From an uncultured virus (IMG/VR IMGVR_UViG_3300031787_000017) (lineage: Duplodnaviria > Heunggongvirae > Uroviricota > Caudoviricetes), in the IMG/VR virus record IMGVR_UViG_3300031787_000017: a stretch of 64,000 bases of DNA; one strand, 5' to 3'. The translations under genes were made by a program, and so were the position numbers. How positions within the stretch are numbered: position 1 is the first letter of the stretch; each line of letters begins with the position of its first letter. Shown here in pieces: positions 13,806 to 43,700 of the stretch. The notes beneath the pieces are model-generated. The model saw only the letters and a list, made by a program, of their open reading frames with translations. It made no database searches and was not told the origin of the DNA.

Positions 13806-13899
13806 AATTTTCTCCTTAGTTATAGACAGGTGTTTCTGTCTGTATTATCTATAGAAACAAGCATAAAAAATTTCTACTGATATTCATTAAATAAATCTA

Positions 13900-14251
13900 A
13901 AAAAATATGCAAGGTGATTGGGTGATAAGGACACCTTGCGAAACCTCATCTAGCATGTTTAAGCTGCTAGAGCGTAACTTTCATCGTTTGCAGTTACTAT
14001 TTTTGCTTGATTTACAGTCATCGCCTACTGTGTTGCCTTCTCCGCTATCTCACCCTGTCGAAACCGGTCGAGCCCATCAGAAGAACTTTCTTCAATAAAT
14101 TCGTGGAACCACCGCCAATATAGACTATGATTCCACAAATTTAAAGGAGGAAATCTATCGTTCCATTGATCCATAAAAATCCTTTTGGTGGACCCGGGGG
14201 GAATCGAACCCCCGTCCAAGATGCCTTCACCTTGAAGGGATTACAACAATT
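13900..14251 (-). ncRNA. ssrA: Circularly permuted two-piece tmRNA
   Basis: Acceptor piece ending GGTTCGATTCCCCCCGGGTCCACCA (to 14186) lies upstream of the coding piece starting GGGCTCGACCGGTTTCGAC (14075). G3:U70 pair present. Tag ANDESYALAA* at 13991-13959. Confidence 0.92.
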
Positions 14252-14257
14252 CTGTAC

Positions 14258-14286
14258 ATCATATCATAATATATATGACTTGTCAA
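14258..14286 (-). promoter_or_regulatory. Sigma70 promoter for tmRNA
   Basis: TTGACA-N17-TATGAT. Confidence 0.75.
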
Positions 14287-14290
14287 GCTT

Positions 14291-14626
14291 TTATCGGCCG
14301 TAAGGTCTTATTTGTTGACCAATACCAATTATACATAAGATGTTTTCTGTATGTTTCTCTACCAATGACCAGGTGCCTGTATTTGGATTAACAAACATGA
14401 TCGTTGGATAAGAATTAACACTTTCACCATTTTCATCATTTGTTCTTCGATGTGAGATCATATGCATCATTGGTTTTTCACCATATTCATCTAATGAAGA
14501 ATATACTACTTCAGCCCTCACACAAACCATTTTGCTTTGTAACAAAGTGAAGTCTTGTTCCTCACTTGTATCGTTACCAACTGCCAGAACTGGAAATAGT
14601 AGCAATGGTAGAAGAATCTTTTTCAT
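14291..14626 (-). CDS. Exported hypothetical protein
   Basis: Signal peptide MKKILLPLLLFPVLAVG; start moved from track. Confidence 0.6.
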   Translation of the reverse strand: MKKILLPLLLFPVLAVGNDTSEEQDFTLLQSKMVCVRAEVVYSSLDEYGEKPMMHMISHRRTNDENGESVNSYPTIMFVNPNTGTWSLVEKHTENILCIIGIGQQIRPYGR

Positions 14627-30773: not shown

Positions 30774-31310
30774 TTAAAGTGTTTCGCCACCGATTGTGCG
30801 ATTACAAGCACAAAGTTCTCCAGTTTGAAGAGCATCAAGAACACGAAGTGTTTCTTCAGGTGAACGGCCTACATTGAGGTTGTTAACCGTAACGTGTTGT
30901 ATAACATTATCAGGGTCGATAATAAAAGTAGCACGAAGAGCTGCGCCCGCTGGTTCATAGAAAACTCCTAATTGTGTGATAAGTGATTTTTCCCAATCCC
31001 TACTTGTGTCAGCAAATTGAATATGTTTGATCTTTTTCAAATCTTCATGTGAAGCTTGCCAACCAAGTTTACAGAATTCATTATCTGTTGAACCTGTCAA
31101 TAGAACTGCATCACGATCCGCAAAGTCTTGGAACAATTTGTCATACGCAACAATTTCTGTTGGACATACGAATGTGAAATCTTTTGGATAGTAAACAATT
31201 ACTTTCCACTTACCATCAAAAGATTTTTCGGTAATATCAAAAAATTTATCACTACCAGGATTAATACCAGTTACTACAAATGGTTCGATTACATCGCCTA
31301 CTGTTTTCAT
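30774..31310 (-). CDS. ahpC: Peroxiredoxin AhpC
   Basis: YPKDFTFVCPTEI, RATFIIDP, GRSPEETLRVLDALQ, LCACN. Confidence 0.93.
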   Translation of the reverse strand: MKTVGDVIEPFVVTGINPGSDKFFDITEKSFDGKWKVIVYYPKDFTFVCPTEIVAYDKLFQDFADRDAVLLTGSTDNEFCKLGWQASHEDLKKIKHIQFADTSRDWEKSLITQLGVFYEPAGAALRATFIIDPDNVIQHVTVNNLNVGRSPEETLRVLDALQTGELCACNRTIGGETL

Positions 31311-31321
31311 TTATTTCCTCC

Positions 31322-31358
31322 AAAAAAAAAAGACTAAGTACCACTACAGTACTTAGTC
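31322..31358 (-). terminator. Intrinsic terminator at the end of the tRNA array
   Basis: GACTAAGTAC..GTACTTAGTC followed by T10. Confidence 0.75.
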
Positions 31359-31428
31359 ATAGTTTACATCAATTATACTAAAAAGTCTAATGATATTTTT
31401 CTATCGTAATAATAGATAGAATAAAACT

Positions 31429-31515
31429 TGGTGCCTCGAGCCGGAATCGAACCGGCACGCCCTCGCGAGCGGCAGATTTTAAGTCTGCTGTGTATACCTG
31501 TTTCACCACCGAGGC
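31429..31515 (-). tRNA. tRNA-Leu(TAA)
   Basis: Cloverleaf, long variable arm, encoded CCA. Confidence 0.95.
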
Positions 31516-31522
31516 ATTAAAA

Positions 31523-31993
31523 CTAAGCTGCTCTTAAACTTTTGAATCTGTCAGCAGCGTATGATGCCGCAAATGCATTTGGTTTAATTAAAGGTATTAC
31601 ATTACAAGTACCACGAATATAACCAATTGCTTCTTGCATCACACAGTTACTTCCGTGATGTTCATCAGGATTAATATCTAAATGAACTTCAACATGTCTA
31701 TCTTCAAGCACATCCGCAAGTTTAATGTAAAGTTCGGATACTTTATAAACTTCATTCATCAAACGATATCTAGGACGATTTTTCTTTTGATCGTAATCTC
31801 TTTCTCTCTGAACTTCACCAAAAAGTTTGCATCCGTTGTTTCCATTTATATGGACTACCACAGCAAGAATGTAATCGGCGTACCAGACACCATCAACTTT
31901 AAATCGCTCAGAATCACAACCAATATAAATTTTGGTTTCGGGTGATTGATTGTTGATGTAATCTTTTACTTTATTTAAATCAAGTTTACGCAC
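31523..31993 (-). CDS. RNase H-like YkuK/DUF458 family protein
   Basis: IYIGCDS, RLMNEV, EVHLDIN, KPNAFAASYAAD. Confidence 0.75.
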   Translation of the reverse strand: MRKLDLNKVKDYINNQSPETKIYIGCDSERFKVDGVWYADYILAVVVHINGNNGCKLFGEVQRERDYDQKKNRPRYRLMNEVYKVSELYIKLADVLEDRHVEVHLDINPDEHHGSNCVMQEAIGYIRGTCNVIPLIKPNAFAASYAADRFKSLRAA

Positions 31994-32013
31994 GACACAT
32001 TCTCCTTATTGTT

Positions 32014-32105
32014 TGGTGCCTCCGGCGGGAGTCGAACCCACATTGGCCAATTATCTGTTGCACACGGGATATAAATCCGCTGTTTTACCGTTAAACTACA
32101 GAGGC
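32014..32105 (-). tRNA. tRNA-Ile(TAT) with long variable region
   Basis: Anticodon loop TTTATAT; about 22-nt variable region; A73; CCA. Confidence 0.7.
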
Positions 32106-32170
32106 GTTTTATAATTATACAGCATCTACATTTCTTTTGCAAGATTTTTTAATTACTTTAACCGACATAA

Positions 32171-32178
32171 TATAAATA
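32171..32178 (+). promoter_or_regulatory. Late promoter TATAAATA
   Basis: 5 nt upstream of the radical SAM ATG. Confidence 0.75.
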
Positions 32179-32183
32179 ACGCA

Positions 32184-33668
32184 ATGAATCATTGCATATT
32201 ATTTTCTATAACATCTAACCTAAGAAGTCGTCCAAGCGGTGTTCACCGAATAGCACACCATCTTCGAACTCAAGGATGGAATGCCGAAGTTATCGACTTT
32301 TTCTATGGATGGACTCTTGAAGAACTAAAAGAACTTGTCCGATCAAGAGTAACCAAGAACACCCGTTTTTTTGGATTTTCATGGTTATTTTTCAGCAACG
32401 AAATAAAAAATACCATAAATCCTTTTTGTGAGTGGGTAAAAATTAATTACCCGGATATAATATTCATCAGTGGTGGACAGACAGAACAAATTTCAAATGA
32501 TATTATCCATTATCACATTGCTGGTTACGGAGAATATGCGTTAAACACATTACTATCTTATTTGTTCAGTAATGGTAAAAAACCTAGATTTTCTTTTCAA
32601 ACACGAAGTAAAACAAAACTCATAAACGCTATACATAGTTATCCTGCTTTTCCCATGCAAGATCCCATGATCAAATATGAATCTCGGGATTTTATTGTAC
32701 CTGGAGAATGGGGTAGAATAGAATTTAGTAGAGGCTGCAAATTTAGCTGTAAATATTGTAATTTTCCTGTTTTAGGCGTAAAGGGTGATTACACCCGTAC
32801 AGCAGAAAGCGCTAGAGAACAATTACTACATGCTTATGATAATTGGGGTATTGAAGATTATCTAGTTTCTGACGAAACATTTAATGATTATACCGAAAAA
32901 ATTACAAAGTTTGCTAATGTTGTCGAAACACTTCCTTGGAAACCTTATTTTGCGGGGTTCATTAGAGGTGATTTATTGGTAAGCAGACCAGCAGACAGAC
33001 ATGAGTTACTTAGAATGGGTTTTTTTTCACACTATTATGGTATTGAAACTTTCAATCAAAAATCCGCACAATTTGTTGGTAAAGGTATGAAAGTTGAAAA
33101 AATACAATCGGGTTTAATAGATGTAAAAAATTTTTTCAAATCCAATACACCAAAAAATTATTATGCTGGATCAATGGCGTTTATTTCTGGACTTCCTTAT
33201 GAAACACTGGAAAGTTTAGAAAGCACTCATCAGTGGATTCGTAGTAATTGGTTGGATCAAATAGTTATTGCAAGTCCTTTAGAAATAAACAAAAACTTTA
33301 CTTTTAGATACTCAGACATTGATGAAAACTTCTCATCTTATGGTTATAGAGAAATGAAAATTAATGATATTGAACTCGACATAACAAAAATTAATGACTT
33401 TTATGGTAATGGTGGCCACGTAATATGGGAAAATGACAATATGAACTTTATTCAGGCATTAGATTGGGCAGAAAAAATTCGTTCCCTTAAAATTATAGCT
33501 GGACACGATTATCAACGATTAAGTATGGGTGATATATGTAATATACTTTGTGATGAGAATGGTGATCCTTTACCGAGGGATAAAAAATTATCCGTCACAA
33601 GAGGAAATTCACGCAATCATTGGAATCTTTTCTTAGAAAAGTATAAGAAAAAGAAACTTAGTATTTAA
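32184..33668 (+). CDS. B12-binding radical SAM protein
   Basis: SRGCKFSCKYC (CxxxCxxC), DETFND, GIET; N-terminal cobalamin-binding-like domain (GG..GYGE). Confidence 0.85.
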   Translation: MNHCILFSITSNLRSRPSGVHRIAHHLRTQGWNAEVIDFFYGWTLEELKELVRSRVTKNTRFFGFSWLFFSNEIKNTINPFCEWVKINYPDIIFISGGQTEQISNDIIHYHIAGYGEYALNTLLSYLFSNGKKPRFSFQTRSKTKLINAIHSYPAFPMQDPMIKYESRDFIVPGEWGRIEFSRGCKFSCKYCNFPVLGVKGDYTRTAESAREQLLHAYDNWGIEDYLVSDETFNDYTEKITKFANVVETLPWKPYFAGFIRGDLLVSRPADRHELLRMGFFSHYYGIETFNQKSAQFVGKGMKVEKIQSGLIDVKNFFKSNTPKNYYAGSMAFISGLPYETLESLESTHQWIRSNWLDQIVIASPLEINKNFTFRYSDIDENFSSYGYREMKINDIELDITKINDFYGNGGHVIWENDNMNFIQALDWAEKIRSLKIIAGHDYQRLSMGDICNILCDENGDPLPRDKKLSVTRGNSRNHWNLFLEKYKKKKLSI

Positions 33669-34333
33669 AATTCATACTTATGTTTTTTTATGATATCAAA
33701 ATTTGATATCTCAACCATTTTCATTAACTCATCAGTATAATAATCTTTATAATTTTTTTTTGATACAGTCACATTCAAAGGCGGTTCTTTAAAGATAGAA
33801 CTTTCTATTTCGGTCGTTAGTTCACCACATCTATCTAACATATAAATCAATTCTTTTCTTATATTTTCTTGTTTACCAATATATGTGGCATATTTCGTAA
33901 AAACATTATAATAGTTTTGAAAGACTGAAACCTCATTCGTTAACCATTGATAAGGCATATATTTGTTCACATCATTAACAGTTTCTTTATTCAACATAAC
34001 AAATAATCTACTGTAGTTGTACATTTTGTTTTTGAATTCATAAGTAGGATTATTCATCAAATGAATCCATTCAGAAAAATCTTTATGTGTAATCTTTTCG
34101 TATAAAAATCCTTCTGTTCCCATTATATCAGAACCATTTTTATTAAATTCATACTGACTAACATACCAGTCCCACGGATTTCTAGTAAAAACAAAAACCT
34201 CTTTGTTTTCAGGTTTTGTAAACAATATTCCATGTTTACGTTGATTCAGTGTAAGTGGTTCAAGAATTTTTTTAATCCAAGTACCTGCTGTTTTTGGTAT
34301 GTGTAAAAATATAGCGTTTTTTGTTACATACAT
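33665..34333 (-). CDS. Sulfotransferase family protein
   Basis: FLHIPKTAGT (5'-PSB) and RNPWDWYVS (3'-PB). Confidence 0.8.
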   Translation of the reverse strand: MYVTKNAIFLHIPKTAGTWIKKILEPLTLNQRKHGILFTKPENKEVFVFTRNPWDWYVSQYEFNKNGSDIMGTEGFLYEKITHKDFSEWIHLMNNPTYEFKNKMYNYSRLFVMLNKETVNDVNKYMPYQWLTNEVSVFQNYYNVFTKYATYIGKQENIRKELIYMLDRCGELTTEIESSIFKEPPLNVTVSKKNYKDYYTDELMKMVEISNFDIIKKHKYEF

Positions 34334-34346
34334 AAATTTTTATATT

Positions 34347-34421
34347 TGGTCCGGCTGCAGGGAATCGAACCCCGATTTAAAGATTAGAAGTCTCTTGTAT
34401 TATCCGTTATACGACAGCCAG
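34347..34421 (-). tRNA. tRNA-Arg(TCT)
   Basis: Cloverleaf, CCA. Confidence 0.93.
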
Positions 34422-34425
34422 AAAT

Positions 34426-34501
34426 TGGAGCGGATAGCCAGGCTCGAACTGGCGACATTTTGCTTGGCAAGCAAACATTCTACCAACTGAATTATATCCG
34501 C
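34426..34501 (-). tRNA. tRNA-Gly(GCC)
   Basis: Cloverleaf, CCA. Confidence 0.93.
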
Positions 34502-34507
34502 ATGAAT

Positions 34508-34712
34508 AAGTGTTAAGCTACTAGTCCTCACTAGCCCTCAACTGAGCTGTTACTCTGTCCATCACATTTACTTCTGGTCAAACAAGGCGTGATACCCACC
34601 TACGATTTTTCTGGCACCCATGTAATTGAGTTCTGAGGCAGATCGTATGCGCCTTGGCGTTATGGTTAAGCCAACAGACCCCCTATCAATAACGGGTAGG
34701 GACCCCGAGGTT
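34508..34712 (-). ncRNA. Structured ~200-nt ncRNA A (homolog of 35465-35654)
   Basis: GC-rich non-coding spacer; shares GCGCATACG and GGACAGRGTAACARCTCAG with element B. Confidence 0.6.
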
Positions 34713-34715
34713 TTT

Positions 34716-34789
34716 TGGAGCGGGATATCAGAATCGAACTGATAACAACAGATTGGAAATCTGTAGTTTTACCATTAAACTAATCCCGC
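34716..34789 (-). tRNA. tRNA-Gly(TCC)
   Basis: Cloverleaf, CCA. Confidence 0.93.
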
Positions 34790-34947
34790 TTTGTTTCTTG
34801 TTTATCTTCAAAAGCATCCAATACACAATCTTCAGTACTCAATTCATCCTGATATTCATTCTTAAAAATTTTATCCCAATTATCAGAAAACTTATCTTGT
34901 GGAACCGAAAATGGTCTTGGTCTACTTCCTTTGCCGCCGTCATTCAT
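34780..34947 (-). CDS. Small protein (55 aa)
   Basis: MNDGGKGSRPRPFSVPQDKFSDNWDKIF...; SD present; stop lies within the tRNA-Gly 5' end. Confidence 0.6.
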   Translation of the reverse strand: MNDGGKGSRPRPFSVPQDKFSDNWDKIFKNEYQDELSTEDCVLDAFEDKQETKRD

Positions 34948-34963
34948 TTTACTTCCTTGTTAT

Positions 34964-35037
34964 TGGTGCCCTTTGACAGAATCGAACTGCCAATAGATGA
35001 TTACAAATCAACTGTTATACCATTTAACTAAAAGGGC
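34964..35037 (-). tRNA. tRNA-Thr(TGT)
   Basis: Cloverleaf, CCA. Confidence 0.92.
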
Positions 35038-35056
35038 TATTATACACTACTTATGC

Positions 35057-35131
35057 TGGTAGTAGTGGCAAGATTCGAACTTGCACCTAACACCGTATGA
35101 AGGTGGCGCACTACCATTATGCTACACTACC
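35057..35131 (-). tRNA. tRNA-CAT (Ile2 or Met)
   Basis: Anticodon loop TTCATAC; CCA. Confidence 0.85.
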
Positions 35132-35133
35132 AT

Positions 35134-35211
35134 TGGTTGCGGGTGTGGGATTCGAACCACACGATTTCTTGCTTATGAGACAAGCGAGGACGACCTCTCC
35201 TCTAACCCGCA
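35134..35211 (-). tRNA. tRNA-Met(CAT), fMet-like acceptor end
   Basis: Anticodon loop CTCATAA; 3' end CCCGCAACCA. Confidence 0.85.
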
Positions 35212-35258
35212 ATTGAAAAGGTGGGAGATTTTACTCTCCTCGCCTCACACGCGAAACT

Positions 35259-35342
35259 TGGTGGGTAGCCACGGAATCGAACCGCGTATGCCGAAGCGCC
35301 TGATTTACAGTCAGGTGTAGTCACCAATGCTACTCGCTACCC
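35259..35342 (-). tRNA. tRNA-Tyr(GTA)
   Basis: Cloverleaf with variable arm, CCA. Confidence 0.93.
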
Positions 35343-35344
35343 AT

Positions 35345-35464
35345 ATTAGAATTGTAGTCTGCACTATTTGCTGTGCTCAACGGAATTACCGGCCGGATGT
35401 ACCGTTTGTATGCATAGTTACTCAGGCATGATCAAGCCCATGGCTTACAGACTACAAATCTAAT
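35345..35464 (-). ncRNA. Stem-closed small RNA
   Basis: Termini ATTAGATTTGTAGTCTG / CAGACTACAATTCTAAT form an approximately 17-bp helix. Confidence 0.5.
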
Positions 35465-35654
35465 ATTGCTTAGGCCACGTTTTTCCACGGTCGCCCCCAA
35501 GCTGAGTTGTTACCCTGTCCGAACACTAATCAGCGGTTTGCTACGTAGTGTCCACGCTGCTATGTTGTCTGCTTACGTATGCGCTAACGGTGCCATAGCC
35601 ACCGAACAATTTTCGTAGTTACACGCTACTTTCAGGAAAGTAGTAACCGGATTC
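35465..35654 (-). ncRNA. Structured ~190-nt ncRNA B (homolog of 34508-34712)
   Basis: Shared motifs and equivalent 3' stem-loop with compensatory differences. Confidence 0.6.
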
Positions 35655-35733
35655 TGGCTCCGCATTTGAGGATCGAACTCAACTAACCAGTGGTTAACAG
35701 CCACGCCCATGCACCAAGCTCGGGTTCTGCGGA
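35655..35733 (-). tRNA. tRNA-Asn(GTT)
   Basis: Cloverleaf, CCA. Confidence 0.9.
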
Positions 35734-35740
35734 ATAGATT

Positions 35741-36076
35741 TTAATCTACATTTAACTTTTCTGCATGTACTTCACGATGACAATTCGCACAAAGCAAAGA
35801 ACATTTATCTATTTCATTTTTTATTTTTTCCCAGGAATAAGTATTGCCTGTTTTAGAAATACCGAATTCTTTTTCATTAGGATCAAGGTGATGAAACTCT
35901 AATGCCTCAACACACTTGTCATATCCACATTTTTCACATTTACCACCTTTGTATTCTATCGCTTGTAATTTTAAATTTCTTCTTTTCTTCTTAGTATGAA
36001 ATTTGTTTTTACATTTTATGCCACAAAATACCGTTTCAGTTTCATTAGTACAAAGATGCCATTTACATTTATTCAT
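35741..36076 (-). CDS. HNH endonuclease (free-standing, within tRNA array)
   Basis: GGKCEKCGY..LEFHHLDP..LCANCHREVH; late promoter TATAAATA at 36108-36101. Confidence 0.85.
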   Translation of the reverse strand: MNKCKWHLCTNETETVFCGIKCKNKFHTKKKRRNLKLQAIEYKGGKCEKCGYDKCVEALEFHHLDPNEKEFGISKTGNTYSWEKIKNEIDKCSLLCANCHREVHAEKLNVD

Positions 36077-36119
36077 AAGATTATCCTTTACAGTTAATCT
36101 TATTTATAAATCTTAAACT

Positions 36120-36196
36120 TGGCGACACTTAGGGAACTCGAATCCCTGACCTCCGCCGTGACAGGGCGGCGTTCTAACCAACTGAACTAAAGTGCC
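36120..36196 (-). tRNA. tRNA-Asp(GTC)
   Basis: Cloverleaf, CCA. Confidence 0.93.
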
Positions 36197-36298
36197 ATAT
36201 TGAAACACACTATGCAGAAGTCTCTAATCTCACCCCGACAGGAGTATAACACACGACCTCGGTGCTCCAGTGTGTCCAGAATATAATGTGCTTCAATA

Positions 36299-36373
36299 TG
36301 GTACACCCAACCGGAATCGAACCGGTGTTACTGCCGTGAAAGGGCAATGTCCTGACCGCTAGACGATGGGTGC
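36299..36373 (-). tRNA. tRNA-Glu(TTC)
   Basis: Cloverleaf, CCA. Confidence 0.93.
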
Positions 36374-36382
36374 AAAAATTAT

Positions 36383-36466
36383 CAAATTGTTAATGAACTC
36401 TTACTCTAGAAAATCTATTATACACTAACCACAGTATTTGTCAAGTGGTGTTGTAAAAATACAACA
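36383..36466 (-). promoter_or_regulatory. Internal tRNA-operon promoter with boxA-like element and upstream palindrome
   Basis: TTGACA-N16-TATAAT (36444-36417); GTTCATTAACAATTT downstream; TGTTGT-N6-ACAACA upstream. Confidence 0.7.
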
Positions 36467-36485
36467 TTATCAACTTGATAATAAA

Positions 36486-36563
36486 TGGAGGTAAGGGTGG
36501 GATTTGAACCCACGGTTTTACAGTTTTGCAGACTGCTGCTTTGGACCACTCAGCCACCTTACC
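36486..36563 (-). tRNA. tRNA-Cys(GCA)
   Basis: Cloverleaf, U73, CCA. Confidence 0.93.
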
Positions 36564-36564
36564 A

Positions 36565-37182
36565 TTAATCTACAGTGGGACCATTTCCATTTTTAAATCC
36601 AATAGTCCCACCTTGTTCTTTAATTTTCTTAATCGCATCCTCAAAAAGAATTGGACGATAATCGGTGTGTTCAACACAAGCGCACCAATATCTCGGATCA
36701 AGAACTTTTTTCTGTGTAGTAAAAGGTCTTTCATCGTAAGGACCCCATTCTTGGACACTAATCGTTTTCATCACTCTGTTGTAATGAAGATGTCCATGAA
36801 TATTTGTTCCAAAACGCCCAAGACTTTCTTCATGTACAGGAATATGACTAAGAATCATTCCATTCATTACATGGTAACCACGAACATCACGAAAATGTTT
36901 AGTGTAATCTTCAAGTTTAAAAATATCGTGGTTGCCTTTAATCAACACTTTATCTCCGTTCAACCTTTCAAGGATTTGGAGAGACTTGCGATTGATTACA
37001 ACATCACCAAGATGGTAAACTTTATCATTAGGTCGAACTGTTTCGTTCCAACGTTTTACCATTTCTTCATCCATTTCTTCTGGATTATCCCATGGCCTAA
37101 GTTTCGTACCATCGTCACGCAGGAATCTACATACGCCAGCATGACCAAAATGTGTATCACTAACTAGAAATACTGCTGGCAT
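36565..37182 (-). CDS. Calcineurin-like phosphoesterase
   Basis: SDTHFGH, HLGDV, KGNHD, SHIP, HGHLH. Confidence 0.85.
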   Translation of the reverse strand: MPAVFLVSDTHFGHAGVCRFLRDDGTKLRPWDNPEEMDEEMVKRWNETVRPNDKVYHLGDVVINRKSLQILERLNGDKVLIKGNHDIFKLEDYTKHFRDVRGYHVMNGMILSHIPVHEESLGRFGTNIHGHLHYNRVMKTISVQEWGPYDERPFTTQKKVLDPRYWCACVEHTDYRPILFEDAIKKIKEQGGTIGFKNGNGPTVD

Positions 37183-37191
37183 AATGCCCCC

Positions 37192-37440
37192 TTATTCGAA
37201 TGGAATTTCTTTTGAAGGATTTTCCAAAATACTTTCTACCACAAATACATCAAACAATTGATCATCTTCTGGATGTTTTATTTCTTCCAAAAAAGTATGA
37301 TTAAACTTTGTTCGCCAATGTACAAATACTTGTTTATCAGCATTCCATCGTGCTTCACTTGCATTACGACAACTGCCTGCATAATAAGCGCCATGAATTA
37401 AATTCTGTTTTGCAATTTTAGCTTCGTATGACTCGTACAT
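37192..37440 (-). CDS. Hypothetical protein
   Basis: YYAGSCRNASEARW..FVHWRTKF; start moved to MYES. Confidence 0.6.
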   Translation of the reverse strand: MYESYEAKIAKQNLIHGAYYAGSCRNASEARWNADKQVFVHWRTKFNHTFLEEIKHPEDDQLFDVFVVESILENPSKEIPFE

Positions 37441-37455
37441 AATTTTTCCTTTAAA

Positions 37456-37545
37456 TGGCGGTGAGTATTGGATTCGAACCAATGGAAGGTTTAACCCTTC
37501 GACGGTTTAGCAAACCGCTGCCTTAAGCCACTCAGCCAACTCACC
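37456..37545 (-). tRNA. tRNA-Ser(GCT)
   Basis: Long variable arm, G73, CCA. Confidence 0.95.
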
Positions 37546-37670
37546 ATTGTATCACAAAAATTAGCAAACATGAGGCAACTAAACATGAGTAATGCAATTC
37601 CAATACCTAATACAAACCAATAAAAAAATATTTGTAGTACTATATTGAGTATCATGTTTTTTCCTTTAAA

Positions 37671-37758
37671 TGGCGGAAGCGGTGAGATTCGAACTCACGG
37701 ACCTTTTACAGTCGTCGGTTTTCAAGACCGATACCTTAAACCACTCAGACACACTTCC
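37671..37758 (-). tRNA. tRNA-Ser(TGA)
   Basis: Long variable arm, G73, CCA. Confidence 0.95.
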
Positions 37759-37766
37759 ATAAATTT

Positions 37767-37842
37767 TGGCCGGTCCTGAGAGAATCGAACTCCCACCTGC
37801 GGGTCCGTAGCCCGCCGTAATCATCCATTTTACTAAAGACCG
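37767..37842 (-). tRNA. tRNA-Arg(ACG)
   Basis: Cloverleaf, CCA. Confidence 0.92.
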
Positions 37843-37845
37843 ATA

Positions 37846-38040
37846 TTAAATTGTTTTGTCGATGTTACTTCCTTTAGTGACAATATCTATAACACCATTT
37901 ACATCATACACAGTGGTCGGATAATATCTACGCTCAACGACAACTACATCATTACCGTTTGGATAATCATAATTAATTCTTTTTTCTATAGTTCGTAGAT
38001 TTTCTTGCCATCCCAAATATGTAATAGAATTTATTTGCAT
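37846..38040 (-). CDS. Hypothetical protein
   Basis: Strong SD AGGAG; lies between tRNAs. Confidence 0.55.
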   Translation of the reverse strand: MQINSITYLGWQENLRTIEKRINYDYPNGNDVVVVERRYYPTTVYDVNGVIDIVTKGSNIDKTI

Positions 38041-38053
38041 GATTACTCCTTAA

Positions 38054-38130
38054 TGGTGCCCCAGAGGAGAGTCGAACTCCTAAAATTTGGCTTCTAAGAC
38101 CAACACGTATACCAGTTCCGTCACCGGGGC
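38054..38130 (-). tRNA. tRNA-Leu(TAG), short variable loop
   Basis: Anticodon loop CTTAGAA; 77 nt. Confidence 0.88.
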
Positions 38131-38136
38131 AAATTT

Positions 38137-38211
38137 TGGTTCCGGTTGGTGGGAACGATCCACCGACCCTCGCCTTATCAAGACGATGCTCTACCACTGA
38201 GCTAAACCGGA
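38137..38211 (-). tRNA. tRNA-Ile(GAT)
   Basis: Cloverleaf; atypical T-loop GATCG. Confidence 0.88.
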
Positions 38212-38213
38212 GT

Positions 38214-38289
38214 TGGTGCAACCTCCAGGAATCGAACCTGATTCAACGGCTCTTCAGGCCGCCGCTATGACCACATCAGCTAAAGTTGC
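38214..38289 (-). tRNA. tRNA-Phe(GAA)
   Basis: Cloverleaf, CCA. Confidence 0.92.
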
Positions 38290-38290
38290 A

Positions 38291-38364
38291 TGGTGCTCTC
38301 AACAAGAATCGAACTTGTAATGCATCCTTACCAAGGATGAGTTATGCCACTTAACTATGAGAGC
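38291..38364 (-). tRNA. tRNA-Thr(GGT)
   Basis: Cloverleaf, CCA. Confidence 0.92.
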
Positions 38365-38375
38365 TGCATAACATT

Positions 38376-38451
38376 TGGTGGAGGATAGCAGATTCGAACT
38401 GCTTACTCATGCTTGCAAAGCACATGTGTTCCCAATTAGCACCAATCCCCC
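38376..38451 (-). tRNA. tRNA-Ala(TGC)
   Basis: G3:U70, CCA. Confidence 0.93.
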
Positions 38452-38452
38452 A

Positions 38453-38617
38453 TTAAACATAAAACTTTGTTTGATCCTGTTTCTTTTGATTAATCAAACG
38501 ATTTCTCTCACACCACGGACAACCACCGTGATGTTCACAACTTTTTGAAACATATTGCGGACGACCATCTCTAACTTTTTTTGAAGTTTTTCTTTCTTTA
38601 CGAAAAGTCCTAGACAT
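38453..38617 (-). CDS. Small basic Cys/His protein (54 aa)
   Basis: MSRTFRKERK..SKSCEHHGGCPWCERNR; SD AGGAG; different frame from the track ORF. Confidence 0.6.
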   Translation of the reverse strand: MSRTFRKERKTSKKVRDGRPQYVSKSCEHHGGCPWCERNRLINQKKQDQTKFYV

Positions 38618-38633
38618 ATCATTCTCCTAAATT

Positions 38634-38707
38634 TGGTCTCGGTAGAAGGAATCGAACCTCCGCCGCATGGTCCCAAACCACGCATGATACCATTTCACCA
38701 TACCGAG
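38634..38707 (-). tRNA. tRNA-Pro(TGG)
   Basis: Cloverleaf, CCA. Confidence 0.93.
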
Positions 38708-38712
38708 TTATT

Positions 38713-38787
38713 TGGTGCATCGTGATGGTTTCGAACCACCGACAACTTGCTTGTAAGGCAAGGACTCTACCACTGAGCTAACGATGC
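38713..38787 (-). tRNA. tRNA-Val(TAC)
   Basis: Cloverleaf, CCA. Confidence 0.93.
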
Positions 38788-38788
38788 A

Positions 38789-38864
38789 TGGGGTAACCTA
38801 TGAGGATCGAACTCATACTGCCAGGTCCACAATCTGGCGTGCAGACCACTACACTAAGGTCACC
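38789..38864 (-). tRNA. tRNA-His(GTG)
   Basis: G-1:C73, CCA. Confidence 0.93.
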
Positions 38865-38952
38865 ATTGTATCATATAGAAACACATTCTTGGATTCTCGT
38901 AACAGTAATCCATAACCCCGGGTGTCATTATGTGTTTGAATGTGTTTTTATA

Positions 38953-39028
38953 TGGTGGGGCCACAGGGATTCGAACCCTGACCTTACAGATTAAAAGTCT
39001 GATGTCTTAACCATTTGACTATAGCCCC
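38953..39028 (-). tRNA. tRNA-Lys(TTT)
   Basis: Cloverleaf, CCA. Confidence 0.93.
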
Positions 39029-39169
39029 AGCATCTTGCCACTCTTGTCACTATCCATGACAGGACTCCTTTTTAAAAATTTTTGTGTATGTAAAAAATAA
39101 AAACCACCACTAGTATTAAAACTGATATTGCCCCATGATTGTTTCTCCTTATTATAGTTTACATAATCA

Positions 39170-39243
39170 TGGCTCCGGTGGAGGGAATCGAACCCCCACT
39201 AACGGTTTTGGAGACCGCCGCACTGCCATTATACTACACCGGA
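39170..39243 (-). tRNA. tRNA-Trp(CCA)
   Basis: Cloverleaf, CCA. Confidence 0.93.
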
Positions 39244-39325
39244 ATATTCACCAAATAGAAGAATACTCTGTCGCCGTTTTTGCTACGCAGGTAACGACCA
39301 AGACCTCAAAGAGTATTCTTTTGTT

Positions 39326-39399
39326 TGGCAGGGGATGTAAGAATCGAACTTACAATAACGGAATCAAAATCCGCTGTGATACCACTTCACCAATCCCCA
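39326..39399 (-). tRNA. tRNA-Gln(TTG)
   Basis: Cloverleaf, CCA. Confidence 0.92.
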
Positions 39400-39505
39400 A
39401 TTGATCCGGATTTTACTCTGCTGTTATCGCCAGCGTTTTCATCCTCGGTTCCGACCTTTTGCCATTTTATTGTACGCCGGCTCACACTCGTTGCGAATAG
39501 CGTAT

Positions 39506-39543
39506 AAAACAAAAAACCCTAAGTCTTTCGATCTTAGGGTTTC
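39506..39543 (-). terminator. Attenuator terminator upstream of the tRNA array
   Basis: AAACCCTAAG-ATCGAAAGA-CTTAGGGTTT followed by TTTGTTTT. Confidence 0.85.
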
Positions 39544-39569
39544 TGTAGGTTATCTGGTACTTCAATAAT

Positions 39570-39695
39570 CTATACAAAAACCCCTTGATCGTGGTAGCCT
39601 AGTCCGCTTGTATTAATAAAGCGTGCTGAGGCCTGCCAAATTGATGGCATTTCTATATCTAAAGCGGGTTTGCAATTTAATTCGTTTTTCATCAT
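39570..39695 (-). CDS. Putative attenuator leader peptide (41 aa, all 20 amino acids)
   Basis: MMKNELNCKPALDIEMPSIWQASARFINTSGLGYHDQGVFV*; last codons complementary to the terminator 5' arm. Confidence 0.65.
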   Translation of the reverse strand: MMKNELNCKPALDIEMPSIWQASARFINTSGLGYHDQGVFV

Positions 39696-39741
39696 AGTAC
39701 CTGTATTTATGTTTTTTTACTGCAAATTTCAATATGTGTGT

Positions 39742-39793
39742 AGTATATAGTAAAAAATATTTTTTGTCAAGCGGCTGTTGCACAAATACAACA
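39742..39793 (-). promoter_or_regulatory. Sigma70 promoter for the leader/tRNA operon, with upstream palindrome
   Basis: TTGACA-N17-TATACT; TGTTGT-N6-GCAACA at 39793-39776. Confidence 0.8.
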
Positions 39794-39827
39794 TTATCAC
39801 CTTGATAATTAGTTATCAAATTGACAA

Positions 39828-39904
39828 TGGTGGGCCGGGAGAGATTCGAACTCTCTATCCCCCGATTATGAGTCGGACGCATATACCTAAAATGCTTCCG
39901 GCCC
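39828..39904 (-). tRNA. tRNA-CAT (Ile2 or elongator Met)
   Basis: Anticodon loop CTCATAA; CCA. Confidence 0.88.
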
Positions 39905-39912
39905 CTCAAAAC

Positions 39913-40746
39913 TTATTCGAGTGTAAAATCTACACCTTTAATTGAATCGAATCTAAAGGAACGCCAACCTTTTGCTTCTACGTCGAAAACAGGCAAAGCG
40001 TCATCTGAAAATTTTCTTTGTGATTCAGTATTTTTTGGAATCCAGTGTTCAGAAATTATTTCATCTTTCAGTGTACATTTCATTACTCGTTCAGTACCAT
40101 CAGTTTTAGTAAAAGTAATTTCAACAACGCCATCTTTCAAAAGACCTTTAATCCAATCTTTTGCGGTATCTGAAGTAAAGTCCTCAGGTTCATCATCATC
40201 ATTACTCCAATCTATTTCTTCATTCCATTCTGCATCATCCAACATGCGATCACGAATACCCCAATATTCAACTATATCCTCAGGAATATCATCCAGAGAT
40301 TCTAGGTCAGAATATTCATAATTTTCATCAATACCATCAACGAATTTACCAACGAAAGCCATACCTTCTTCGTGATAATAAGCTTCTACATCAAATCCTT
40401 GATTTTCCATTTCTTCATACAATGCAATTGGAGGTCCCCAAGGCGAATCGAACCAGAATGTAATAGTATCTTCATCACGATCCCAATCTTGAGCGTCACA
40501 ATTCCATTTACAACCCCAATTATCTAACGACCAAGAATACCAATCTTGATATCCATACTTAGCCATCAGTTCTTCGTTGCGTTTATCGTGGAATGAAACA
40601 TCACCAACATTTTTCAATTCTTCAGGACAAGGCAGAATGAAGTCGAACCACTCTTTACCATTTTTATCATCCAGAAATTTTTGAAATTTATCAATAGATT
40701 CGATATCACCCTTCACAGTGATAGAGTTGTTGCACCAATTAGGCAT
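39913..40746 (-). CDS. DUF1281/ferredoxin-like domain fused to a C-terminal WYL-like SH3 domain
   Basis: MPNWCNN..NWGCKW..FDSPWGPP; C-terminal FTKTDGTERVMKCTL..VFDVEAKGWRSFR. Confidence 0.65.
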   Translation of the reverse strand: MPNWCNNSITVKGDIESIDKFQKFLDDKNGKEWFDFILPCPEELKNVGDVSFHDKRNEELMAKYGYQDWYSWSLDNWGCKWNCDAQDWDRDEDTITFWFDSPWGPPIALYEEMENQGFDVEAYYHEEGMAFVGKFVDGIDENYEYSDLESLDDIPEDIVEYWGIRDRMLDDAEWNEEIDWSNDDDEPEDFTSDTAKDWIKGLLKDGVVEITFTKTDGTERVMKCTLKDEIISEHWIPKNTESQRKFSDDALPVFDVEAKGWRSFRFDSIKGVDFTLE

Positions 40747-40765
40747 AATATAGTTCCTTATTCAA

Positions 40766-43700
40766 TTAAGATTTAGTTTCGGCAATACTTCTCAATGCAT
40801 CTATCATTTTGGATATTGTAACAGGCTTTGCTACTCTAGTGAGGTAATCTTGAAACCATTCTACCGACTTATCAGTTTTACGGCAAAAACAACCGTAAAT
40901 TTCCGAGCCCATTAAAGTTTTACTAACATATGTGATGGGATCAATAAAAATTGCCTCAAAAGCATCGTCAAATTCAGGTTTTCCAAAATCATTACGTTTA
41001 AAAAAGGCAACATGAAACATATCACCCATTTTTGAGTTATCAATAGGATTGCCATCACTCAATTCATTCTTTAATTTGAAAAAATGAAAGATAAATCCTT
41101 CTTCATTTTCATTTTCAGGCGGTAAAAAGTAAAATCCATCATAATCTTCAGGGACAGTGCCTTCAGTACGCATAATTTTCTCGGATTTCTTTTCGTATTT
41201 TCATTTTTTCGACAGATCGAACAAAATCTTTCGCTGTTTTTTGTCTTTTCAGTGAATATTTTGGCGTTCTTAAGTCTTTTGCTACAAAATTTCGAATTTT
41301 TATTGAATCTTTAAACATTTTTTCACTCAAAAAATGACTTTATGCTCATTTTCCTCTAATTTTACTAATTTTTCGATTTTTCCTCGAACAAGGTACGCTG
41401 AAAATTCTTCCCATTCAGTGTATTTTTTGTCTAAGTGACGATAGAAACGAATTTCGCCCGTAAAAGTTTCATTTTTTACCCAATTTTCATTAAATTTTTC
41501 CAAATAGCCTTTGAAAAGCGAATTTTCGTCATCAACCCAGCGTGATTGATACTGTTCTTCATACAAAAATCCATCTTTCAACTCATAATTATCAAGTAAT
41601 TGATTCGGCGTATCTTTGGTTTGATACTCATTACCTTCAAAACGCAAATAATCAAACATTCCCATATTATTTTATTCCGATAATGTGAATTTACTTAATA
41701 CTTCATTGGCTTCTGTATAATCATCATCCATCATATTTTCCATCATTTCATACTTAATTAACATCAGTAAGGATGTTGCAGTTATACGATCACGTTTATT
41801 CAATGAACTTACCCAATATTGAAGTTGTTCTTTATTGTCCATGCTCCACATAATTTGAAGCATTTTCTTTTCTTTTTTGGTCAAACCATCTAGTGAAATT
41901 AAAATTTTAACCTCCTGCGCCGTAACTGTGCCACATGACATAGTTATACACCTCTTGAACACCTTGTTCACCCGTTTCGAAAACAGAAGCTGGCGTGTTT
42001 CCTTCCCAATACTTGTTAGGAGATTCCCACCATTTGTAAACTAGTTCGGCAGAACCCAACATAGAGAACAAATGGCGGTTAATTTGGTGTATAGTTTCGT
42101 TATCACAGGTCATATTTGTATTTATTAGTTATTTAATTTTTCTGTCACTTCGAAATGCGTAGTTAAAATCACACTGAGTACAACGAAAGGAATAATCAGT
42201 ATGTAAAACCAAAGACTTTTATTTATAGCCAAAAAAGTAATCGCCACCACACCAATCAAATCAAAATTGGTGATATCTTTTTTAAATAAAAATCGATAGA
42301 GATATTTCATCAATTACCTCCAAGTTGACCAATGGTGTAAATCAACAAATAAACACCCACAGTGAGTGGTATAAGTGTTGCTAGATAATCTTTATAGTCA
42401 ATTCGAATACCATCTTTCTTTCGAAAGAGTATCATACTGGAATTCATACCAGCAATAAAAATATTTGCTACACCTAAAATAAAATTTACAATAGCTAAAC
42501 TCATTTAACACTCCTCAATTGACGGCATTGTTCACGCATTTGCTGCGTATAATCAGGACTAATTTCCGCAATACTACAGGAAATTACAGTATCATTTTTC
42601 GGATAAGTCCAAATAGCTAAAAAGAGTGCGCCAAGTATGGCGACACCCATAATCAAATATTCTTTTATCATTTTGTTAGTTCGTAAGGTTTATTCCATTT
42701 ACCGATATTTACATCAATATACCAACCTACATTAAAGTAATCGTATTGAATTTCGGATTTATCCCAGTTTCCATCATTCATAGCAGGAATCACTTCAGAC
42801 AAAAAGGCCTTAGATTTGCCGGTAAAGTGGTCTTTGTACCAGTAGGGGTTTACCTGGATGCCGAACTTTCGAGCATCATCAGAATTACCATAATCGCTGA
42901 TAAAATCGATTTTACCAGATTTTATATTTAACGCTAGCGTAGAATGATTACGCACAGCAAGACTGGCTTTTACGCCATACTTTTTGCAAATTGCTTTAAT
43001 CTGAGGTGCCAATTTAGATTTCAATTCTTGAGATACGTAAGCCATGATTAACCCCTTACAGTTTCAATAAATTTGTTTTCCAGAATCACTCGGTCACGAA
43101 TTGCATTATAGACAACAACTGGTGTTGTCAAAACGACATGATGGGAGACTTCGCCGCCGTATTGCACTCTTGACAATTCGACAACACCTGTCACTGGGAA
43201 TTCACCCATGTACATTCCGCTAACTTCCAGACCTTCGAGATTCCACATAATGCGTCCTTATCAACTCAACAGGATTGATTATACAGGAACCACGGTGGAA
43301 GGCAAGCATTATTTTTGTTATCAAAAGAACAACGAAGTTATCACAATTGCAACAAATGTCAATTGAATAACAGCTGCAGAAACCATAACGATTACAGAAT
43401 TTGTAATGGTCCCCGTTTTAGGGTCCTCACGAATTTCGATATCATTCAGAAAATCAAAAATCAGCCGTATATCCATTGTCCGAGTTTAAACCCTAACCAA
43501 ATAAAACCAAAAGAAAGAAAACCGTTTACCATTGTAACCACAAAGATTATTGGCCTGTCCATTGTGTATTTACCTTTTCACGAATATAGTCAATCACATC
43601 CCGAGCTTCTTGCATATCGGAACATTCAACGGCCAACTCAATCATTTCCCAGTATTGGTCATAGAGGTCATTTATGAGGTGGTCCAAGATTTGTCGTTTA

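Follow-up and report, generated by a model that had tools for sequence, protein, structure and literature searches.

Enterobacterial leader-peptide attenuators include those of trp, his, leu and pheA, together with the multivalent thr and ilvGMEDA leaders. In these systems a short, promoter-proximal open reading frame (ORF) is followed by an intrinsic terminator and a mutually exclusive antiterminator, and the end of the ORF lets an arriving ribosome mask the 5′ strand of the antiterminator. The same arrangement, possibly with a pause hairpin too, is found in a 64,000-nucleotide stretch of DNA from an uncultured virus of the Caudoviricetes (IMG/VR record IMGVR_UViG_3300031787_000017; "the window" below means this whole stretch), where it precedes an array of transfer RNA (tRNA) genes. 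The virus is a lake phage, and the gene content of the window is T4-like, with a gp32-type single-stranded DNA-binding protein, a baseplate tube cap and wedge proteins. Judging from sequence comparison, we consider that the unit is probably a ribosome-mediated transcription attenuator heading the phage tRNA array and sensing the decoding of nearly every tRNA class.

Unlike the enterobacterial attenuators, the phage unit would regulate tRNA genes and not biosynthetic enzymes. Its leader has no regulatory codon run and offers about one codon per amino acid, plus the alternative Ser, Leu, Arg and Ile classes. The phage leaders also encode longer peptides (31-44 codons), and most of the transcripts appear leaderless. 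T-box riboswitches share with the unit the sensing of tRNA charging and a terminator/antiterminator switch placed before genes of the translation apparatus. A T-box, however, recognises a single uncharged tRNA by direct contact, with no part played by a ribosome or an ORF, whereas the phage unit would read all tRNAs through the ribosome. The leaders of erm/cat-type and ABC-F genes react when a drug arrests ribosomes at particular peptide motifs, and translation initiation is the step that many of them control. As in the phage unit, a short ORF reports slowed ribosomes of any cause via an alternative RNA fold; they differ in that the phage composition is selected for completeness and the output would be tRNA transcription. 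Since the structural features of the trp, his, leu, thr and ilv leaders are present, the cognate codon run is absent and tRNA genes would be the regulated target, we regard the unit as a variant of that kind, outside any described family. Rfam matches in the window were to tRNA and transfer-messenger RNA (tmRNA) only, with no T-box; in 39380..39830 nothing scored better than E = 3.8 and no leader family fits.

An initial annotation, made from the sequence alone, had already read this region as an attenuator, and the comparative data support that interpretation. All leader coordinates refer to the minus strand of the window, and the parts of the switch are as follows.

39770..39742, minus strand: sigma-70-type promoter TTGACA-N17-TATACT, matching 11 of 12 positions
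39696..39735, minus strand: 5′ untranslated region of about 40-46 nucleotides (nt), specific to the window clade
39695..39570, minus strand: leader ORF of 41 codons plus TAG, translated as MMKNELNCKPALDIEMPSIWQASARFINTSGLGYHDQGVFV* (asterisk, stop)
39633..39648, minus strand: hairpin within the ORF, TGCCA-loop-TGGCA, with a Trp codon in its 3′ arm
39584..39573, minus strand: antiterminator 5′ arm GGGGTTTTTGTA, formed by the last four sense codons
39572..39570, minus strand: stop codon TAG, directly after the antiterminator 5′ arm
39547..39536, minus strand: antiterminator 3′ arm TACAGAAACCCT, overlapping the 5′ arm of the terminator
39543..39506, minus strand: intrinsic terminator with a stem of 12+2 base pairs (bp), a GAAA loop and a U tract

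The near-consensus promoter of the initial annotation is thus in place; it ranks second among the promoter sites in 31000..41000 and is unchanged in the close relatives L004 and L005. The predicted ORF is present and encodes all 20 amino acids with 31 kinds of codon. For the weak Shine-Dalgarno (SD) sequence that had been proposed, an AGG does exist in the window leader, but it is not conserved in L004 and L005, and most family members look leaderless. The terminator folds as described, although a simple terminator scan missed it, probably because of the stem bulge. Pairing of GGGGTTTTTGTA with TACAGAAACCCT gives a helix of 12 bp including G:U pairs, where 11 bp with one G:U had been noted, and none of 500 shuffled leaders forms one as long.

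We found relatives in IMG/VR through the 277-amino-acid protein encoded upstream of the leader (39913..40746). L004 and L005 have the same Met-gap-Gln layout, an intact ORF and leaders 83-91% identical to the window in nucleotides. In L004, where the amino-acid identity of the flanking gene is 79%, the terminator stem carries a compensatory CCTCAAG/CTTGAGG change. More distant relatives (L006/L013, L008-L010, L011 and L012) carry a promoter and an ORF of 40-42 codons, of very different sequence, directly before the first tRNA; there the ORF stop lies within GGGTTTGTGTA, and a complementary CACAAACCC overlaps the terminator. The peptides of L004-L006 and L008-L013 contain all 20 amino acids each. 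L007 has no leader, and its tRNA array begins directly behind another gene. Distant partial homologues (L014-L020) have neither tRNAs nor a leader-type ORF, so that the unit tracks tRNA arrays and not the neighbouring 277-amino-acid gene.

For a census of IMG/VR and a metagenome collection we used a pattern made of the RNA arms and the U tract only, which is blind to the ORF; the census figures given here and below are among the matches listed. The pattern gave at least 142 distinct matches, 49 of which have a tRNA on the same strand starting within 150 nt. We define the family by these two properties, the pattern and the nearby tRNA; it occurs in uncultured T4-like phages. Of the 49 loci, 44 have a family ORF with a length of 23-42 codons, and these 44 precede tRNA-Gln(ttg) (n=37), Ser(gct) (n=4) or Ser(tga) (n=3). 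The other five differ, with low-complexity ORFs in L148/L171 and L040 and no ORF in L035 and L189. The 93 listed matches with no nearby tRNA are mostly chance; 13 of them have an ATG ORF of at least 28 amino acids ending in the motif, among which L113 encodes a complete peptide and is a true family member. Patterns anchored on the ORF added just three contigs (L025, L030 and L084), and a narrower peptide alignment (A5) led to one further locus, L207, with a complete peptide before tRNA-Gln. The initial annotation had suggested looking in related phage arrays for the unit of promoter, short ORF, antiterminator and terminator, and it is found there.

Some loci from the census have features of their own. 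In L148/L171 and L040 the arm and terminator motif stands before tRNA-Cys; the ORFs there have 30-38 codons but use just 10-11 different residues, with Thr, Ser, Gly, Asn, Phe, Ile and Cys abundant, and may serve as leaders tuned to one part of the tRNA array. In L113 (623-997) a gene for an HNH homing endonuclease lies between terminator and tRNA array, with a new promoter behind it. TAG is the stop of 29 of the 44 listed family leaders. L004 (6021-6095) has a tRNA with anticodon CTA, an amber reader, called 'Pyl' by ARAGORN.

Among 50,697 phage records searched by blastn, the window leader and its surrounding 7.9-kb region gave tRNA matches only, the L012-type leader gave none and the L048-type leader matched only tRNA-Ser. 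At the sensitivity of blastn, no cultured phage in these records has a leader of the window, L012 or L048 type. G001, the closest record, stops short of the leader, and its sole match was to the paralogous promoter motif.

The most distinctive property of the leader is its amino-acid composition. Within the window, none of the 155 other ATG ORFs of 28-45 amino acids holds all 20, and only 16 of 9361 sliding 41-residue segments of its 39 long ORFs do so. By comparison, 37 of the 44 listed family ORFs are complete (34 of 43 when counted as distinct peptide entries), including four of 31 codons and one of 32. Even with a flat composition, the probability of drawing all 20 is 0.002 in 31 draws and 0.044 in 41 draws. 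None of 9751 sliding 31-residue segments of real phage proteins is complete, and only 3 of 755 other small ORFs in all the DNA fetched are, two of which are family members missed by the definition, so that the background is 1 of 753.

This completeness persists despite strong divergence. The family peptides fall into 16 clusters at 70% identity, 13 of which have a complete member. We took one representative per cluster by alphabetical choice, blind to composition, which gave a set with a median pairwise identity of 34%. Thirteen of the 16 representatives are complete. Shuffling within alignment columns gives a mean of 0.86 and a maximum of 6, and none of 20000 shuffles reaches 13; completeness is thus maintained sequence by sequence and is not a mere legacy of the family profile. 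Among the representatives, Cys, His, Lys, Asp and Glu move to different positions without breaking the set. The composition of the family is near-flat as well as complete, with neither enrichment nor tandem runs of any amino acid.

The same holds for codon classes. We counted 24 decoding classes: one for each of the 20 amino acids, one more for the second box of each of Ser, Leu and Arg, and ATA. The 16 representatives cover 22.44 of these on average compared to 19.74 after shuffling (0 of 5000 shuffles reach the observed value). Leaders with at least two codons of the amino acid in question use both boxes in 33 of 40 cases for Ser, 29 of 32 for Leu and 20 of 22 for Arg. A profile built from 15 peptides and run against 1.84 billion protein representatives found 25 matches, 22 of them short, and 18 of these 22 are complete; two of the four incomplete ones are N-terminally truncated gene calls. 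Several profile matches have other C-terminal tails, which implies that the family is wider than the RNA pattern. Comparative evidence of this kind shows selection on the peptide for a complete set of amino acids and isoacceptors.

The RNA elements of the switch are conserved as pairs. When 38 distinct switch regions are aligned (A2), 97.9% of the terminator cells are paired and five terminator pairs have changed on both sides. The antiterminator pairs left free by the search pattern covary as well: pair 14:69 is GC in 30 sequences, GU in 4 and AU in 3, and pair 20:63 is GC in 34, UA in 2, GU in 1 and UG in 1, with no unpaired cell at either. Pair 13:70 is formed in 31 of 38 sequences. Column 69 has a partner in the terminator as well, so that changes of the 5′ arm in the ORF go along with changes in both terminator arms; the GAGG/CCTC/GAGG of L008/L009 is such a joint change. 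We also considered the 11 distinct loci that were found without using the arms. In all 11, the best helix between the leader and the 5′ flank of the terminator is at the end of the ORF, has 9-13 bp and starts 9-18 nt before the stop, and only 0-10 of 500 shuffles match it.

The reading frame is placed relative to this motif and not fixed within it. Across the 44 listed family loci, the stop codon lies 8, 10, 13, 14 or 15 nt past the start of the GGTTT motif, so that the conserved motif is read in all three frames. Thereby the arm is translated variously as GFV*, GVCV*, GVCVS*, KGFVCS* or WGLCNL* while its nucleotides are conserved. A stop held near the motif in three frames is as expected if the position where the ribosome ends matters and the C-terminal residues do not.

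We next folded 19 leaders with a ribosome footprint constrained, as the initial annotation had proposed. In 19 of 19 leaders, the terminator is the minimum free energy (MFE) structure when the footprint covers the stop or the final 8-11 codons. Stalls placed further upstream gave results that are mixed between leaders: the antiterminator is the MFE structure at most upstream positions in the window, L009, L091, L080, L006 and L048, and several other leaders favour it along part of the ORF. The choice would be made kinetically, during transcription, for which we consider equilibrium folding the wrong kind of test; the fold results are compatible with the model without proving it. A hairpin with a Trp codon in its 3′ arm is predicted within the ORF in 14 of the 16 representatives (mean z -1.47), with stem sequences that differ between clades. 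The conservation of TGGCAGGCC at nucleotide level is explained by this predicted hairpin, which may, on the modelled structure, act as a transcription pause site.

The leader is matched to the genes behind it. The window has 27 tRNA genes in total, and the surroundings of the switch are as follows.

39904..39828, minus strand: lone tRNA-Met, preceding the leader promoter
39400..39505, minus strand: conserved 106-nt spacer between terminator and tRNA-Gln
39497..39469, minus strand: weak promoter-like site TTCGCA-N17-TACAAT, inside the 106-nt spacer
39399..39326, minus strand: tRNA-Gln, the first tRNA after the terminator
36486..39399, minus strand: 15 tRNA genes and interspersed small ORFs, between the switch upstream and the next promoter downstream
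36444..36417, minus strand: internal promoter TTGACA-N16-TATAAT, matching 12 of 12 positions

The 15 tRNAs are, in order, Gln, Trp, Lys, His, Val, Pro, Ala, Thr, Phe, Ile, Leu, Arg, Ser, Ser and Cys, the first four exactly as annotated before. In enterobacterial leaders the regulatory codons correspond to the regulated operon; the functional analogue here, a codon set matching the regulated tRNAs, is found at 23 of the 25 anticodon kinds of the array, and only Arg-TCT and Thr-GGT have no cognate codon, in agreement with the initial annotation. As many as 23 anticodon kinds are reached by only 2 of 9361 sliding 41-codon segments of the phage's own long ORFs. A pattern search with GYTCTTTAAMAATTT gave 3 matches in the window where 3.3 are expected, and thus no enrichment. 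Upstream of the leader promoter lies a motif of about 45 nt that is common to the internal promoter. Behind the internal promoter, a box GTTCATTAACAATTT and then tRNA-Glu follow (window 36384..36444, minus strand), as a second array entry with no leader ORF. In L045, L048 and L068 a tRNA-Ser-like sequence, missed by ARAGORN and spotted by eye, comes straight after the terminator.

In most family members the ATG lies 6-9 nt past the -10 box of a TTGACx-N17-TATAAT promoter, so that the messenger RNA would be leaderless or nearly so. In most members, too, the first tRNA follows 19-53 nt after the terminator with no promoter between. Most relatives (L006, L009, L011, L012, L033, L053 and others) have a conserved box GYTCTTTAAAAATTTG 12-20 nt before the first tRNA, which may resemble the boxA of rrn and lambda antitermination. 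If so, the polymerase would be termination-resistant over the untranslated array. No boxA consensus was found in PMC4807359, and the likeness is tentative.

Evidence for expression comes from contigs assembled from public RNA libraries. In three studies an RNA contig falls entirely inside 39402/39406..39618-39630, reaches more than 31 nt beyond the terminator to either side and ends 3-7 nt before the 5′ end of tRNA-Gln, the spacer being covered continuously with the terminator. A fourth contig covers 39527..39677. These contigs hint, weakly, at read-through molecules that are cut at the 5′ end of the tRNA. The region 39678..40000 and the tRNA-Gln gene have no RNA contig cover, which is uninformative.

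Based on these observations, we propose that transcription would begin at the strong promoter and that the short ORF would be translated while it emerges. A ribosome that reaches the stop unhindered would cover the 5′ arm of the antiterminator, the terminator would fold and most transcripts would end at 39506. A ribosome held upstream for want of a usable aminoacyl-tRNA would leave this arm free to pair with the segment overlapping the terminator; the terminator would then be blocked and RNA polymerase would continue into the tRNA genes. In this way the output of phage tRNAs would be raised when ribosomes decode slowly. As to the natural trigger, we can only speculate that it is depletion of host tRNAs by defence nucleases or by host shut-off, and the link to anticodon nucleases or PARIS-type defence is speculative as well. 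Excerpts of recent work on phage tRNAs and defence make a defence trigger plausible (PMC11464382, PMC11555353). We lean slightly towards the specific proposal that a widespread family of freshwater T4-like phages carries a mostly leaderless "pan-tRNA gauge", maintained by selection to sample each of the 20 amino acids, and almost all isoacceptor classes, a single time, such that the loss of any single host tRNA, through shut-off decay or anticodon nucleases, would release transcription of replacement tRNAs.

A number of points, given in this and the following paragraph, weigh against an attenuator of this kind. We infer the translation of the leader, the role of the stall in deciding the fold and the direction of the response. 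Seven of the 44 listed family ORFs have one to three amino acids missing: L070 has no Ala, L088 no Trp, L128 no His and L146 neither Trp nor Tyr. The other incomplete ORFs are short ATG ORFs whose true start is probably upstream; in L206, counting from a GTG that follows a good Shine-Dalgarno sequence yields 33 codons with 19 different residues. Val, which the initial annotation had placed only in the overlapped end, is indeed confined to the last six codons in 12 of the 16 representatives, and a stall at Val should resemble normal termination. Cys is likewise encoded by the arm, yet across the family it is retained upstream as well, unlike Val. In the window, Tyr34 and His35 are likewise near the antiterminator arm. 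Classical kinetic models, as presented in excerpts of PMC1183508, tie the sensitivity of attenuators to codon runs, and single scattered codons with no tandem runs are therefore expected to give low sensitivity.

The switch itself also has its weak points. Eight of the 12 antiterminator pairs in A2 are fixed by the search pattern and are uninformative, and the antiterminator of L207 contains one internal A.G mismatch. With upstream footprints, L038, L034 and L070 keep the terminator as the MFE structure throughout or almost throughout, and L011 and L012 do so at most positions, and the decision of the switch would have to be kinetic. The RNA contigs could include DNA carry-over. A clear extra promoter, TTGACx-N17-TAtAAT, stands between attenuator and first tRNA in L037/L042/L088, L038, L070 and L080, and the weak site at 39497..39469 in the window is, by its sequence, a possible bypass of the switch. 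Bypass promoters, weak in the window clade and clear in four lineages, imply that the switch modulates the array, on top of a basal level, rather than gating it. Finally, read-through into at least 15 tRNAs had been predicted. Fifteen tRNAs do lie downstream, but the strong internal promoter at 36444..36417 makes this number the limit, so that the switch could govern at most the 15 tRNAs from Gln to Cys.

The same anatomy would be seen if the attenuator reported the availability of ribosomes, or their pace relative to RNA polymerase, as might change after host shut-off, and not the shortage of particular aminoacyl-tRNAs. Scattered single codons give weak specificity, and most members look leaderless, so initiation could be the limiting step that is sensed. 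Nonetheless, such a role is unlikely, as it leaves unexplained why a complete amino-acid set and the use of both Ser, Leu and Arg boxes and of ATA persist against drift, and why the window leader matches 23 of the 25 anticodon kinds of its array. The ORF might also be a small early gene of the usual kind, equipped with promoter and terminator, that encodes a functional peptide of 31-44 amino acids and lies beside the array by chance, its all-20 composition then being a feature of that peptide. Conservation with in-frame indels, a recognisable core (W-Q-A-x-Y-R, G-F-I-G) and a conserved N-terminus would fit such a gene. However, the low median identity of 34% among the representatives comes with no invariant column, and residues change position without loss of the complete set; three different frames encode the C-terminus across a single conserved RNA motif, and a Pfam and PHROG scan of five leader peptides gave no match, with a best E-value of 0.18. 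Together with the lack, in most members, of a promoter between terminator and first tRNA, and with a unit that follows tRNA arrays (L014-L020 having neither tRNAs nor ORF), this led us to reject a small gene as quite improbable.

A role of the RNA alone, as a non-coding leader of the tRNA precursor (an element for processing, folding or stability, or a small RNA) with an untranslated ORF, was rejected as well and seems very improbable to us. The window leader is strongly structured (z = -5.4), its nucleotide conservation is not below the amino-acid identity of the flanking gene in L004, and RNA contigs span the region from the middle of the ORF to the 5′ end of the tRNA, all of which would suit a non-coding leader. 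Such a leader would not account for an open frame of 23-42 codons in all 44 listed family loci, for an ATG fixed at the -10 box in most members, for a stop that keeps to 8-15 nt from the motif start whichever of the three frames is used, or for a composition far from that of untranslated sequence. The parts could also work by another logic, in which full translation is needed for read-through, or in which the terminator insulates the array from a strong early promoter and the true array promoter is downstream. The promoter-like sites past the terminator, in the window clade and in the lineages named above, point this way, and the 5′ arm is free again after ribosome release, so that timing could invert the outcome. 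Yet most members, with their spacers of 19-53 nt, have no downstream promoter, and a ribosome terminating at the stop, about 25-35 nt before the terminator stem, would be too distant to melt that stem. We hold a reversed or different logic to be highly unlikely; insulation was rejected since it needs neither ORF nor antiterminator.

An attenuator that senses decoding would extend leader-peptide control to a new target, tRNA genes, and to a new sensing logic, completeness as opposed to repetition. Phage tRNA genes are usually discussed, in excerpts of PMC11464382, PMC11555353 and PMC11025619, as aids to codon usage or as replacements for host tRNAs that are degraded or lost to nucleases, and their regulation is hardly addressed there. 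A literature search at title and abstract level returned no account of leader-peptide control of tRNA genes or of an all-amino-acid leader. A leader of this composition implies supply on demand, in which the phage would gauge decoding and top up any tRNA that is scarce. The pan-tRNA gauge, if true, would be without precedent both as a leader-peptide attenuator shown to act on tRNA genes and as one built to sense the entire decoding repertoire. It would represent a compact natural sensor of global decoding capacity, and the all-20 signature could be used to find further units.

Two other RNA genes of the window deserve mention. A tRNA-Ile of 92 nt with anticodon TAT is located at 32014..32105 (minus strand). 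A two-piece (permuted) tmRNA is found at 13888..14300 (minus strand; Rfam beta_tmRNA 150 bits, tmRNA_permuted 143.9 bits), with the tag ANDESYALAA as called by ARAGORN. Its betaproteobacterial type gives a hint of a betaproteobacterial host.

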